From a virus (taxonomy: Duplodnaviria; Caudoviricetes): a DNA stretch of 64,000 nucleotides. How positions within the stretch are numbered: position 1 is the stretch's first letter; every line of letters starts with the position of its first letter. Position numbers and translations under genes: made by a program. Shown here piece after piece: positions 10,270-40,413 of this stretch. The notes under the pieces are model-generated. The model did not search any database, was not told the DNA's origin, and saw only the letters and a program-made list of their open reading frames with translations. The stretch lies in the IMG/VR virus record IMGVR_UViG_3300031555_004524, positions 128,001-192,000 of that record; one strand, given 5' to 3'.

Positions 10270-11553
10270 AGCCGCAAGCGGTGGTAAGATTTGTAATGGA
10301 ACTCCCATTACAAAACTATCTGATATTCCTACACAATACATTTGCATAATTCCACCATATGCAATAGTTGGATTTCGATTAATAATTATAGGAATTCCTC
10401 TTCCACTATGATCATTCTGAATTAATGATTCTATAATCTGTCGTATCATGATATTTTCTTCAATATATCCCTGATACCATAATTGATATGCATCAGAATA
10501 ACTTTTGTTATAAGTTTTCTGAATTATATTAACTATTCTCTGTTCTAATAATTTTACTAGACATTTATAAGGTAATTTAACCTCATCAATTCTAACTGAT
10601 AAATCAGCTGCAATAACACAACGAGATGAAAAGTTATATCGTCCACCTAAGAGTGAACGAACAATACCTTTTTTCTTCTTTAATACATCTTCTAAATTAG
10701 CATATAATTTATTAAATTTATTTTGTAAATCATATAATAATTCGAAATTTGATGTGGATTTAGCATTCATCTTTAATACACCATATTGATTTAATTTATT
10801 TACAATATTATTCATAATATTATAAAGACCATTGCTATCTTCATAATAGAAGTTTTTCTGATCTACATCAATAGGTCTAAGTAATACTGTAAATACAGGT
10901 ATTGATTGTGTAAATACTACATCTTTATTGTCTAGTATTTCATGATACTGCTCACGTTTCTTTTTGGTAGTTATTGATCTTGCGTAGAATTCAATAACTT
11001 CATCAAATCTTTCTTTAAATTCCATCATACCAATACCAGCAAATGGTTCATCTTTTGTCTTTGTTACCCCAGTATCAGTAACATGACCATCTTGATCTTT
11101 TTCTGCAGCATATGCTAAAATATGATCTAATCTTTCTTTTCCTAAGAAATTCTTGATTACTTTATACATATTTGGATGCATGATATAATGTGGATCTTTC
11201 AATACAATCCAACCAAAATATGCAAAATTATCATCTACATATTCTACTGGAGTTCCACAAATTGGACAGATGGTTTTATTGTTGATACGGAAATTTAAAT
11301 GTCCACATTTACAACGATATCTGTTTGCATATGGATTCATATCTCTTAATGTCTGACCAAATCTTGATGACCATAATCCATCATAATCTTTTAAGTCTTT
11401 CTTGATACCATGCGGTGGACCAATAACAAAACCGTTATCTATGGATAAATCCATAATACGTTCTTGGTCTAGATTAATTCTTTTTAATCTGGTTTCATAT
11501 TCGTAGTCTTCTGAGTACGGATATCTCAGAGTTACTTCAAATTCTCCTCCCAT
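10270..11553 (-). CDS. rpoC: RNA polymerase beta' N-terminal subunit, exon 1 (probably non-virion RNAP)
   Basis: Zn motif CKCG...CPICG, KKGIVRSLLGGRYNFSSRCVI, INRNPTI, PLQILPPLAA|. SD GGAGGTG before 11553; early motif at 11591-11598. Confidence 0.9.
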
Positions 11554-28089: not shown

Positions 28090-28229
28090 AAAACACAAAA
28101 TAACCAGGATAGAAATTAATCTATCCTGGTTATTGTATATAATAATATGAAGGATTATACCAATATCAAACATGGAATATATGATATCAGAAGGCAATAA
28201 TTTTTGATGTTTGATATATGCAGCTTCAT
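28090..28229 (-). ncRNA. Array sRNA unit 1 (predicted)
   Basis: AACA-N6-TA at 28229-28240; long internal stem; terminator hairpin 28099-28134. Confidence 0.6.
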
Positions 28230-28251
28230 AATATTATGTTGTATAAAATAA

Positions 28252-28366
28252 TTGGAGATGTCCCTCTAGTAATAAAGTACTAGAGGGTTACAGTCATGAA
28301 AAAAAAATCATTTTTACTACCTACATATATAATTTGAAGTTATACCATGTAAATACTATCCGTCCT
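28252..28366 (-). ncRNA. Array sRNA unit 2 (predicted)
   Basis: AACA-N6-TA at 28366-28377; stem with G-U pairs on the minus strand; 3' hairpin 28262-28287. Confidence 0.6.
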
Positions 28367-28401
28367 ACTATAATGTTATTATATTTATTAAAAAATATTT
28401 T

Positions 28402-28527
28402 GTTAGGAAGTCACCTCTAGCAAAATATATGCTAGAGGTAAAACAAAAGGTATTGGGTCATAAAATGATAAAAAAGATATACAAAAATGATAGAAATCGG
28501 CGAGTGAGCGTCGATAATAATCATTCT
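28402..28527 (-). ncRNA. Array sRNA unit 3 (predicted)
   Basis: AACA-N6-TA at 28527-28538; 5' stem at +1; 3' hairpin 28413-28439. Confidence 0.6.
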
Positions 28528-28557
28528 AATTAATTGTTTATAATAGTGTAATAAAAT

Positions 28558-28750
28558 ACATGAGAAATCCCAGTAGTATTACACTACTGGGAAACTCATT
28601 AATCAAGGAAATTCTGCCAAAATTAAAACTGATTAACATGAAGATTTTAAAAAATGTCATTTTCAGGAGAAATAAAAATGATACTCTTTGCTATTTTATA
28701 AATCCATCTTACATATTATAGCTAGTAATAGTATATATCATACTATACTT
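28558..28750 (-). ncRNA. Array sRNA unit 4 (predicted)
   Basis: AACA-N6-TA at 28750-28761; 5' stem at +1; AUUUCUCCUG loop; 3' hairpin 28568-28592. Confidence 0.6.
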
Positions 28751-28779
28751 ATATTATTGTTACATATAATGTAATTTTT

Positions 28780-28911
28780 TACAAAAATAATCCCTAGTGG
28801 GCACGCAACCACTAGGGATTATTTGTTGTTTCCGTTGCACGCGTTATGGCAACAATCATGGAATTTTTAAATGATTAAATACACAAAAGAGAGGATTCAA
28901 AAATGAACCCT
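28780..28911 (-). ncRNA. Array sRNA unit 5 (predicted)
   Basis: AACA-N6-TA at 28911-28922; 5' stem AGGGUUCA/UGAAUCCU; terminator 28786-28823 with U-tract. Confidence 0.62.
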
Positions 28912-28948
28912 ACTATATTGTTATTTGTTTAAAATTATATAAAGTTTT

Positions 28949-38260: not shown

Positions 38261-38422
38261 TTTTAACTTCTCCTTCGCATGTTTATGATAATAATATAAT
38301 ATGTATATTATTACACTATTATAATATACAATTAATATGTAATATAATTTCAAAAAAATATATTTTTAATATAGGCTAAACATTCCATTATACGTACATA
38401 TAGAAAGGATGTATGAGAAAAA

Positions 38423-38584
38423 ATGAAAAAAGATCAATTTATTAAGAAACTTACTGAATTCTCAAGAGAGGATATCCAAAACTTTATTGAGAAGAATGGT
38501 AAACCGCCAAAATTGATTCGTTTATTTACACCCTTAAAAAAAGAATTAAGGGAAGAAAAAGGAGGAAATGGAAATGGGAACTAA
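38423..38584 (+). CDS. 53-aa protein MKKDQFIKKLTEFSREDIQNFIEKNGKPPKLIRLFTPL... (absent from the ORF track)
   Basis: Follows the late promoter at 38379-38390; overlaps the next gene. Confidence 0.6.
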   Translation: MKKDQFIKKLTEFSREDIQNFIEKNGKPPKLIRLFTPLKKELREEKGGNGNGN

Positions 38585-39110
38585 AGTTGAAGATTTATTG
38601 AAAGATATTCAAGAAAATTTGAAACATAAAAATTCATCTAAAGAGGATGAAGTTGCTATTATGCAAGCCATGGTTAACGATACTTCATTTGTAGTTGGAG
38701 TATATGGTAAAAATGGAAGAGAAGGAGAATACTGTCCAGCTGCAGATTTTAAGAAAATGGCTTCTTCTATTATTTCATCTGCAACCAAAATTAGCAGAGA
38801 AGAAGCATCTTCAATTATTGCAGATTATGATATTACTAAAACTGAAGCTGAAGCTTTAGTTGGAATATCTAAACAATTTATCAATACATACTTAGAAACT
38901 GGACGAAAACTTCCTTTAGGTTGTAGGGAAGAAACAAACTTCCAGTTATGTAGAAAAGTTGTAAATGAAAGAGTTAGACCTTGCCCTAAAAAGATTGGTG
39001 TAAATGAAGAAGGAAAAGGTATTTATGAAATGATACCTACAATAACACCAAAACATATTGGTTTGAAAGTATATACTGCAATGCCAGATATGCCTGAGGA
39101 GGAAGAATAG
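38568..39110 (+). CDS. Hypothetical protein
   Basis: SD AGGAGG; lies within the operon. Confidence 0.7.
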   Translation: MEMGTKVEDLLKDIQENLKHKNSSKEDEVAIMQAMVNDTSFVVGVYGKNGREGEYCPAADFKKMASSIISSATKISREEASSIIADYDITKTEAEALVGISKQFINTYLETGRKLPLGCREETNFQLCRKVVNERVRPCPKKIGVNEEGKGIYEMIPTITPKHIGLKVYTAMPDMPEEEE

Positions 39111-39113
39111 TAT

Positions 39114-39827
39114 ATGGAATATAAAGTTATAACTTTATGTGGAAGTACAAAATTTAAAGACGATTTTATAAGAGTGCAGAAAGAATTAACTCTTAAAGGC
39201 AATATTGTTATTTCTGTTGGGTTATTTGGGCATTCTGGAGATAATGAAGCTTGGCAAAATGATGGTAAAATAAAAACAATGTTAGATGATATACATAAAA
39301 GAAAAATTGACATGTCTGATGAGATATATGTCATAAATAAAAATGGGTATATCGGAGAAAGTACACGATTGGAGATAGAATATGCTAAATCTAAAGGACT
39401 TAAAATAAATTATATGGAAGAACCAAATTCTTGCGGTGAGATGGAAGTTGGACGTTGCGAATGTTGTGGTAGAGAAAATGTTCCTTTATCTAGAAAATAT
39501 TATCATTATAATAATATAAAATGCGAATGTCATTCACCTAATCATTTTATCTTGATTAGACATTGTAATGATTGTGAGCCTAAAGAACCTATATATACTA
39601 AAGTTGAGTATAGAACAGAAGATCTACATACTCCAGAAATTATTGCTAGTAATATATTACAGAAATTATATTGCGAGAATAGTTACAATCCAGATTTAGC
39701 AGATGAAATAACAAGTAAGGTTTATGATAAACTAATGGCATATTTTGTGCATCATGAAGTGTTTACAGATAAACCATATAGAGTATTTATACAAGAATTA
39801 ATAAATATAATTATACTAGCTAAATAA
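39114..39827 (+). CDS. Nucleoside deoxyribosyltransferase-like (DUF4406-like) domain fused to a Cys/His-rich domain
   Basis: VITLCGS...HKRKIDMSDEIYVIN...GYIGESTRLEIEYA, then CECCG...CECH...HCNDC. Confidence 0.6.
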   Translation: MEYKVITLCGSTKFKDDFIRVQKELTLKGNIVISVGLFGHSGDNEAWQNDGKIKTMLDDIHKRKIDMSDEIYVINKNGYIGESTRLEIEYAKSKGLKINYMEEPNSCGEMEVGRCECCGRENVPLSRKYYHYNNIKCECHSPNHFILIRHCNDCEPKEPIYTKVEYRTEDLHTPEIIASNILQKLYCENSYNPDLADEITSKVYDKLMAYFVHHEVFTDKPYRVFIQELINIIILAK

Positions 39828-39836
39828 CATGGGAAT

Positions 39837-40345
39837 AAATGAAAAAATGGTGACTTTTGAAATGGATTTACATTGTAAAATGTATATGACTTTTTCATTG
39901 GTTGATTTCTCTTTTTAGACATTTATACCGAATATATATTTTTTTAACTATAATGAACTGTACTTCATTATAGTTAATACGCATTATGATTACTTTTTCA
40001 TTTTTTTCTCATAGCTTTCATTGTTTGTTTGCCACCATTATTTTCATTTTGAAACATACGATATTGCCGATTACATTGATCGGATATAATTATATATACA
40101 TCGCATCAATTTTATTTGACAATAACTTTTCAGCTAATCGCATAAACACATTCAACAACTGCGTTGTGCACCATCTTGTGTTGACATGTATACATAGGCA
40201 CATAACACCTCCAACGAACGTAAAGCTTGGTATATTCTTTTTGGTGGCGATGACGGACACTTATATATAATTAAAATAATCGGCAATACATGGACTTACA
40301 TCGAGTAGATAGGGCCAGTACCTTAACGGGTACTGGTCCTTCTGC
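39837..40345 (+). ncRNA. Predicted ~500-nt structured ncRNA
   Basis: AACA-N6-TA at 39826-39837; long-range stems; hairpin 40311-40340 with a G-U pair on the plus strand. Confidence 0.55.
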
Positions 40346-40375
40346 CGTCGTTATATGGGAAAAATGGATAATTTC

Positions 40376-40387
40376 AACATTAGGATA
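40376..40387 (+). promoter_or_regulatory. Late-type phage promoter AACA-N6-TA (representative copy)
   Basis: Exact copies start at 18532, 38379, 39826, 40376, 51237, 52988, 59439, 62045 (+) and 26321, 28240, 28377, 28538, 28761, 28922, 30234, 32412, 37620, 55176, 58913 (-). Matches the AR9 nvRNAP consensus. Confidence 0.85.
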
Positions 40388-40413
40388 ATCATATAGAAAG
40401 GAGATATATATTA

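Follow-up and report, generated by a model that had tools for sequence, protein, structure and literature searches.

The gap upstream of the tape-measure gene

The question raised by this locus is whether the stretch between a 237-aa gene and a 3594-aa tape-measure/lysin gene is a gene in its own right, and what its product might do. We examined it within a 64-kb window (64,000 nucleotides; positions 128001-192000 in a virus record of 248,149 bases), to which all coordinates refer. The record has 29% G+C and encodes multisubunit RNA polymerase subunits, and these, together with intergenic DNA rich in the AR9 late promoter, identify an AR9-like jumbo phage; the sequencing runs containing its DNA were from animal faeces and sheep gut, and no RNA run was listed among them, which has no bearing on expression. 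The original prediction had placed in the gap a late, structured non-coding RNA (ncRNA) with segments antisense to ribosome-binding sites (RBSs). A functional non-coding RNA gene is very probably present there. For comparison we used a sister clade defined by two trees (L313/L314, L319 and L321, the three sisters below).

The genes of the locus run in the order polymerase beta (minus strand), a 186-aa gene (minus strand), a 53-aa ORF, a 178-aa protein, the 237-aa gene, the gap and the tape-measure gene, and genes were often gained and lost at this locus. The 53-aa ORF (38423-38584, plus strand) is a genuine conserved small gene with early and late promoter motifs and homologs of 40-47 aa in L003, L007, L011, L012, L313, L319 and L321. 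The conserved 178-aa protein (38574-39110, plus strand) has a confident predicted fold (pLDDT 90), and DNA-binding proteins of the HU/IHF type were its top structural matches, with low TM-scores and a best E of 1e-3; sequence-family searches detected nothing for it. Antisense to this HU-like gene we noticed long open frames of 182-237 codons in L029, L068, L094, L095 and L113, which may be an effect of codon bias. The 237-aa gene (39114-39827, plus strand) looks like a fusion: its N-terminal part resembles a widespread deoxyribosyltransferase-like protein of about 110 aa (112 aa in the stand-alone form of L012), and its Cys-rich C-terminal part has one distant homolog.

Promoter and predicted ends of the RNA

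An exact late promoter of the non-virion RNA polymerase type, AACA-N6-TA, lies at 39826-39837 (plus strand), overlaps the 237-aa gene at its stop codon and gives a predicted +1 at A39837. It is the same as the mapped late consensus of AR9, AACA-(6N)-TA/G (PMC5312081). Sites of this class occurred 70 times in sense and 3 times in antisense orientation in the intergenic DNA of the genome, and the promoter part of the original prediction was confirmed. The promoter of an AR9-type late transcription unit is thus found here in a phage with multisubunit RNA polymerases. The variants with 5- or 7-nt spacing had no comparable sense excess genome-wide.

At the other end, a GC-rich, terminator-type hairpin with a short tail is located at 40306-40345 (plus strand); its G-U pairs fit the plus strand, and a strict U-tract terminator scan did not call it. 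Nearly all relatives have a similar hairpin ahead of the tape-measure promoter, and since it is found in most syntenic gaps, the 3' hairpin is the ordinary terminator of the locus. The predicted ncRNA would therefore extend over about 509 nt (39837-40345, plus strand; both ends are putative) and consist of two closed domains and the terminator. The separate late promoter of the tape-measure gene (40376-40387, plus strand) is the boundary and lies outside the RNA. An attenuator of the tape-measure gene was ruled out, because that gene has its own promoter downstream of the hairpin.

Secondary structure

Folding from +1 (39837) gave two independent domains and the 3' hairpin, and the whole RNA was more stable than its shuffles (z -4.3). 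The reverse complement also beat the shuffles, the minus strand folding as well as the plus strand, so that folding alone carries no strand information; the plus strand is indicated by the promoter and by G-U pairing in the terminal hairpin, and the G-U asymmetry of the window RNA overall was ambiguous.

Domain 1 (39837-40049, plus strand; z -5.0) has a U-rich interior and a closing helix of 16 bp, which starts at +1 and pairs 39837-52 with 40033-49 with one bulge (pair probabilities 0.9-1.0, and 0.5 for the first pair). This closing helix was equalled in 5 of 500 shuffles, and a perfect 14-bp hairpin lies within the domain at 39944-39977. The helix had been overlooked in the original prediction, in which the 11-mer tggtggcgatg was proposed to switch between two partners, gccacca and catcgc. 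The 11-mer is present, at 40242-52 (one base off the position first given), and its pairing with catcgc has a probability of about 0.98; the alternative with gccacca has an ensemble probability of 0.0, since 40033-49 is held by the helix with the first 16 bases of the RNA, and the switch had to be abandoned. A four-codon ORF (Met-Lys-Lys-Trp, 39839-39853, plus strand) at the 5' end of the RNA is buried in the +1 helix; no counterpart of it was seen in the sisters.

Domain 2 (40061-40289, plus strand) is built of nested long-range helices with 29 pairs around a weakly structured, GC-richer interior. The helices are 40061-73/40277-89, an AT-rich helix and 40099-104/40247-52. The perfect 12-bp helix 40062-73/40277-88 was found as first described; the 12 bp of the AT helix 40087-98/40262-73 are also present, but in that register with a probability of only about 0.38. 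The outer helix was equalled in 1 of 500 shuffles, and the domain as a whole had a z of only -1.5. In its architecture domain 2 is the most sister-like part of the window RNA.

Conservation at the locus

No DNA homolog of the window RNA was found among 50,697 phage records, 48 genomes of related jumbo phages or about 150 syntenic loci. Motif scans for homologs returned nothing, the 79 matches that were screened looking like chance, and Rfam had no match for the window or the sister RNAs. Among 72 distinct syntenic gaps, most were of 90-300 bases and contained the terminator hairpin and the tape-measure promoter only. The gaps of the three sisters are of 387-446 bases and free of ORFs, with a predicted unit of 310-375 nt. 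In each of them a late promoter follows directly past the last gene, the RNA would start with AAAU, and the terminator is related. The predicted sister RNAs are closed by helices of 23-35 pairs beginning at +1 to +3; the sequences of these helices differ, and they were equalled in 0, 8 and 2 of 500 shuffles.

Covariation, by which the original prediction was to be checked, could be followed in the closing helices to a limited extent: six of nine sister pairs had at least one both-side change, among three sequences only. The sister G-U pairs favoured the plus strand (4:0, 2:1 and 2:0). Among the sisters the arms turn over completely, and length and the closed-end architecture are kept; the sole internal block common to all three is A-N-CAYCUCC-R-A. 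Beyond this motif, the window RNA could not be aligned to the sisters (z at most 1.5), and a profile search was empty. The homology between window and sister RNAs is thus based on position, architecture and motif, and the conservation on only four independent sequences. The AAAU at +1 is shared with the sisters by domain 1 and not by domain 2.

The next clade (L322, L011) has shorter promoter-hairpin units only, which lack the motif, and more distant relatives lack the long RNA unit. A late promoter with a shorter hairpin-rich unit was observed at the same spot at L007:5535-5760, L011:5532-5834 and L322:2812-2960. Since other clades also carry a promoter and a hairpin-rich unit there, the gap may serve as a site where small RNAs are exchanged.

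These comparisons also bear on whether the element does anything at all. It could be a long 3' untranslated tail or a decaying insertion between the HU-like operon and the terminator, with helices and motif persisting by chance or descent. Most relatives have only terminator and promoter here, the locus frequently gains and loses genes, and the window sequence has no alignable homolog, all of which would fit. However, four phages share a dedicated promoter for the unit, a significant +1 helix whose sequence has changed and the motif itself, and the marker proteins of the sisters are only 50-60% identical to those of the window phage, which makes a non-functional remnant very unlikely. We consider the element probably a real, clade-restricted and previously undescribed long RNA.

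Alternatively, two tandem RNAs may be made: a lineage-specific one of about 213 nt from domain 1, and an ortholog of the sister RNAs, of about 283 nt, from domain 2 and the terminator. The second would come from a variant promoter (40053-63) or from cleavage, and such RNAs could work by the mechanism that we favour below. The domains fold independently, and domain 2 with the terminator comes nearest to the sister size and contains the motif. A promoter-like site close to the consensus but spaced by 5 nt is found at 40053-40063 (plus strand), and its +1 would be at the start of domain 2; spacing variants exist among the late promoters of AR9 (PMC5312081). The genome also has an array of five late promoters in tandem, with a unit ending in a hairpin behind each (28090-28925, minus strand; promoter sites 28229-28911). 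Nevertheless, sites with 5-nt spacing show no genome-wide enrichment (0.40 vs 0.42 per kb), no terminator hairpin separates the domains, and the sister-like AAAU start belongs to domain 1, so that tandem RNAs appear fairly improbable and the site is a weak lead for a second, separately started RNA. Domain 1 itself looks like an addition or, should transcription also start from the site at 40053, like a separate RNA.

Coding potential of both strands

A 94-codon ORF (39986-40270, plus strand) lies inside the predicted RNA, and its translation and conservation as a protein would have spoken for a coding gene. It has no Shine-Dalgarno sequence (SD; +0.8 kcal/mol), and its codon score of -0.25 is below that of every phage gene (minimum -0.14). 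There was no entry for it in a collection of 15 billion proteins, no family match and no counterpart in the sisters. Judged by its sequence the ORF looks non-coding, in agreement with the original prediction, and we did not regard it as a gene. In the near-identical contigs L184-L190 the element is unchanged. Two strain contigs of depth <5 were not counted as evidence: one has 12 differences over 39946-40404 against 17 in 909 bases of neighbouring genes, and the other has lost 1 base at 40001, which would break the 94-aa frame.

On the minus strand, a perfect SD (GGAGGUG) precedes an ORF at 40203-40090, and the strand folds equally well, as would be expected if the product were a small peptide of 37 or 23 aa with a sequestered SD, similar to a type I toxin. 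Against this, neither a late nor an early promoter motif occurs on the minus strand, the peptides encoded downstream of the SD are wholly different among the four phages and have codon scores no higher than the low tail seen for the phage genes, and the sister G-U pairs favour the other strand. The test for a type I toxin mRNA on the minus strand gave neither a conserved hydrophobic peptide nor an own promoter. Translation of such a peptide, or of the 94-aa ORF, is thus hardly credible.

The anti-Shine-Dalgarno seed and other antisense tracts

The conserved motif lies in the window RNA at 40204-40214 (plus strand) and copies the core of the 3' tail of 16S rRNA. Its core, ACACCUCC at 40205-12, had been flagged by the original prediction before any relative was examined. 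CAYCUCC occurs in all four RNAs (window and three sisters) with a chance expectation of 0.003-0.011 per RNA, and a search of the remaining short syntenic gaps (12 kb) did not find it. The late, structured RNA with an anti-SD seed is in this respect supported, as the unit and CAYCUCC are kept at the locus in the three sisters under the same late promoter class. Opening of the seed would cost 0.7 kcal/mol, which makes it accessible, and CUCC is mostly unpaired in three of the four RNAs. The location of the motif within the closed domain differs between the window phage and the sisters. A 5' strand at 40178-40182 (plus strand) is able to pair with the first five seed bases, with a probability of only 0.05 in the full fold. 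Such a seed hairpin is possible in all four RNAs, and one of its pairs is U-A, A-U or G-C (a both-side change; chance about 0.04), which is suggestive only.

The motif could also serve as bait. A stable structured RNA may act as a protein decoy or scaffold, its copy of the 16S tail binding or distracting a host factor that recognises the anti-SD. Length and closed ends are conserved and the arms are not, the motif of L313 reproduces the core of the 16S tail exactly and follows a hairpin, and no mRNA target stood out in the pairing tests described below. Moreover, toxins that cut the 16S anti-SD are described in two reports (PMC12274833, PMC12620021). However, CUCC is followed by RA and not by the UU of the true 16S tail, and the C-to-U change in L321 retains pairing to G, which fits base pairing better than recognition by a protein. 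The protein partner of such a decoy is also hypothetical, and we rate this reading as rather unlikely.

Domain 1 carries further antisense tracts. The four UUUCAUU segments noted originally are present at 39893, 39996, 40016 and 40042, all within this domain, and four copies of one 7-mer have a P of about 0.007 when any 7-mer is allowed. Segment s1 (39889-39918, plus strand) is a generic anti-AUG and anti-SD tract that pairs with RBSs of the AAAAGGAGA type; it is partly paired (opening cost 7.3 kcal/mol) and not conserved as such in the sisters. Its mean duplex with start regions was -13.5 against -10.3 +/- 0.9 for shuffles, for a segment picked after inspection. Segment s2 (39992-40019, plus strand) is mostly unpaired and is the complement of the region where the 53-aa ORF starts (38404-38430). 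A multi-seed design of domain 1, specific to this lineage, is plausible from the excess of the repeat.

Similar tracts were seen elsewhere. Of the generic anti-RBS windows in the intergenic controls, some of the strongest lie in two of the five tandem units at 28090-28925. In a distant relative (L323:1500-1590, minus strand, G005), a late promoter and a hairpin are followed by a perfect AUCACCUCC. In several distant relatives, the short 3' tail from the stop of the HU-like gene to the terminator reads like the reverse complement of an RBS with AUG: L003, L007, L011, L026, L045, L091, L097 and L115; no consistent cognate local target was found for these tails of short gaps.

Pairing with candidate targets

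Against the start regions of the phage, the seed scored -9.7 compared with -5.8 +/- 0.9 for shuffles, as expected of any anti-SD. Six phage genes have GGAGGUG and four have GGAGGUGU, including the polymerase subunit at 11553. The seed alone forms only an 8-bp duplex with its best phage sites, and no conserved extended pairing with local phage targets was found in the window phage or at the sister loci. The strongest single pairing, of s1 with gene 28016 (-30.1, reached by 0 of 60 shuffles), is formed by two blocks with an 11-nt bulge and was drawn from about 45 windows; it is a lead only.

According to the original prediction, the RNA carries dedicated seeds for the 53-aa ORF and the polymerase beta' gene and may feed back on polymerase synthesis. 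The complement to the start of the 53-aa ORF exists (20 nt of the RNA with 19 nt at 38412-30, one bulge), and this start region, in the same operon, ranked first of 244 for s2 (-23.3 kcal/mol). The 8-nt match to the beta' SD is also real, the polymerase gene at 11553 being among the four with that SD, and the four UUUCAUU exceed chance. However, 27% of shuffled s2 sequences found an equally good start region and the match itself had a blastn E of 0.16, so that it is not beyond chance genome-wide, and sister RNAs paired with the start of their own small ORF at only -12 to -14 kcal/mol. The beta' sequence is a plain SD common to four genes, and its pairing ends at 8 bp. No early-gene bias was observed, and feedback on polymerase synthesis gained no specific support; dedicated seeds of this kind are quite unlikely. 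The label of kinase for another proposed target, gene 24454, was not retained, as only weak or unknown-function matches were found.

Two further ideas gained no support. Early genes carry an excess of AAAAGGAGA sites (P 0.0006), yet no segment of the RNA prefers early over late starts, and a shut-off of early genes was rejected. Discrimination between host and phage by GGAGGUG was not supported: this SD occurs at about 2% in the phage and 0.7-5% in four clostridial genomes, which may not be the host's. In the same genomes, with the same reservation about the host, AUG-AAA starts amount to 9-15%, and in the phage they are about half as common (about 5%).

Comparison with known RNAs

The Firmicutes RNAs RsaE/RoxS and RsaD are C-rich, SD-targeting small RNAs, and they resemble the window RNA in having an accessible C-rich anti-SD motif and their own transcription unit with a terminator (PMC8334554). 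Some features of a C-rich small RNA were found in the window RNA, which is non-coding, has its own promoter and terminator (with a short tail) and carries a conserved unpaired anti-SD motif. In contrast to RsaE (93 nt, two UCCCC), it is encoded by a phage, read by a phage polymerase and three to five times longer, has a single CAYCUCC and shares no sequence or Rfam match.

RNAIII of Staphylococcus aureus is about 500 nt long and has three C-rich loops. The window RNA is like it in its several domains and long-range helices and in its anti-SD seed (PMC8334554), and also in size. It differs in having one conserved seed only and neither an agr/quorum-sensing context nor a delta-haemolysin-like peptide. 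The Rfam model of RNAIII did not match it, and no conserved encoded peptide was found that would make it bifunctional. The description as RNAIII-like thus applies to the mode of action only, and the proposed comparison with large phage and Firmicutes ncRNAs in Rfam gave no match.

Among jumbo phages, ORF-less units have been described upstream of a tail gene for sRNA005 of 201phi2-1 and its phiKZ counterpart (PMC11512511), and in phiKZ as 3'UTR_PHIKZ298 and 5'UTR_p40 (PMC8545117). These units are likewise non-coding and conserved in position beside tail genes. They are, however, shorter than 250 nt, mostly derived from untranslated regions and seen experimentally, whereas the window RNA is longer and predicted, with a promoter and terminator separate from those of the tail gene. 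ROOL, GOLLD and the phage K RNAs lnc001 and lnc002 are similar in being several hundred bases long, phage-borne and set in Firmicutes (PMC12286853, PMC9241854). Unlike ROOL and GOLLD, the window RNA has no tRNA neighbours and no ornate conserved core, as its arms turn over completely among the sisters. No covariance-model match at any threshold, and no ARAGORN match, was obtained for ROOL, GOLLD, OLE, 6S, RNase P, SRP or tmRNA. A retron was tested for, and the genome had no match to PF00078 (reverse transcriptase). Resemblances to RNase P P4 and to T-boxes were ruled out by inspection and Rfam.

Proposed function

Because the conserved motif copies the anti-SD tail of the ribosome, masking of RBSs is probable as the mode of action, and on our analysis the chances are about even for the full reading, that a late, end-protected predicted RNA masks strong RBSs of host or phage mRNAs through the conserved seed. 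The non-virion RNA polymerase would transcribe the RNA gene late, starting at 39837 (+1) and stopping at the hairpin near 40345. Each domain would be closed by long 5'-3' helices, which probably protect it against exonucleases, and the RNA would display CAYCUCC as the mirror of a perfect SD. Late in infection, the seed would then pair in trans over the RBSs of a group of host or phage mRNAs and reduce their translation. In the window phage only, the extra U-rich 5' domain would add lineage-specific anti-AUG and anti-SD tracts.

A global action, which we consider unlikely, would have the long, end-protected copy of the 16S tail compete with ribosomes for perfect SDs throughout the host mRNAs or serve as a decoy for a host defence nuclease that cuts the anti-SD; in this reading the window phage would have added a second domain with repeated anti-AUG-AAA tracts.

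Our literature searches returned no AR9-type phage RNA shown to act on ribosome-binding sites. As the phage is uncultured, the immediate use of the finding is limited. A function is known for few RNAs of lytic phages, and an RNA whose scaffold turns over and in which one anti-SD motif stays would offer a clean test of function.
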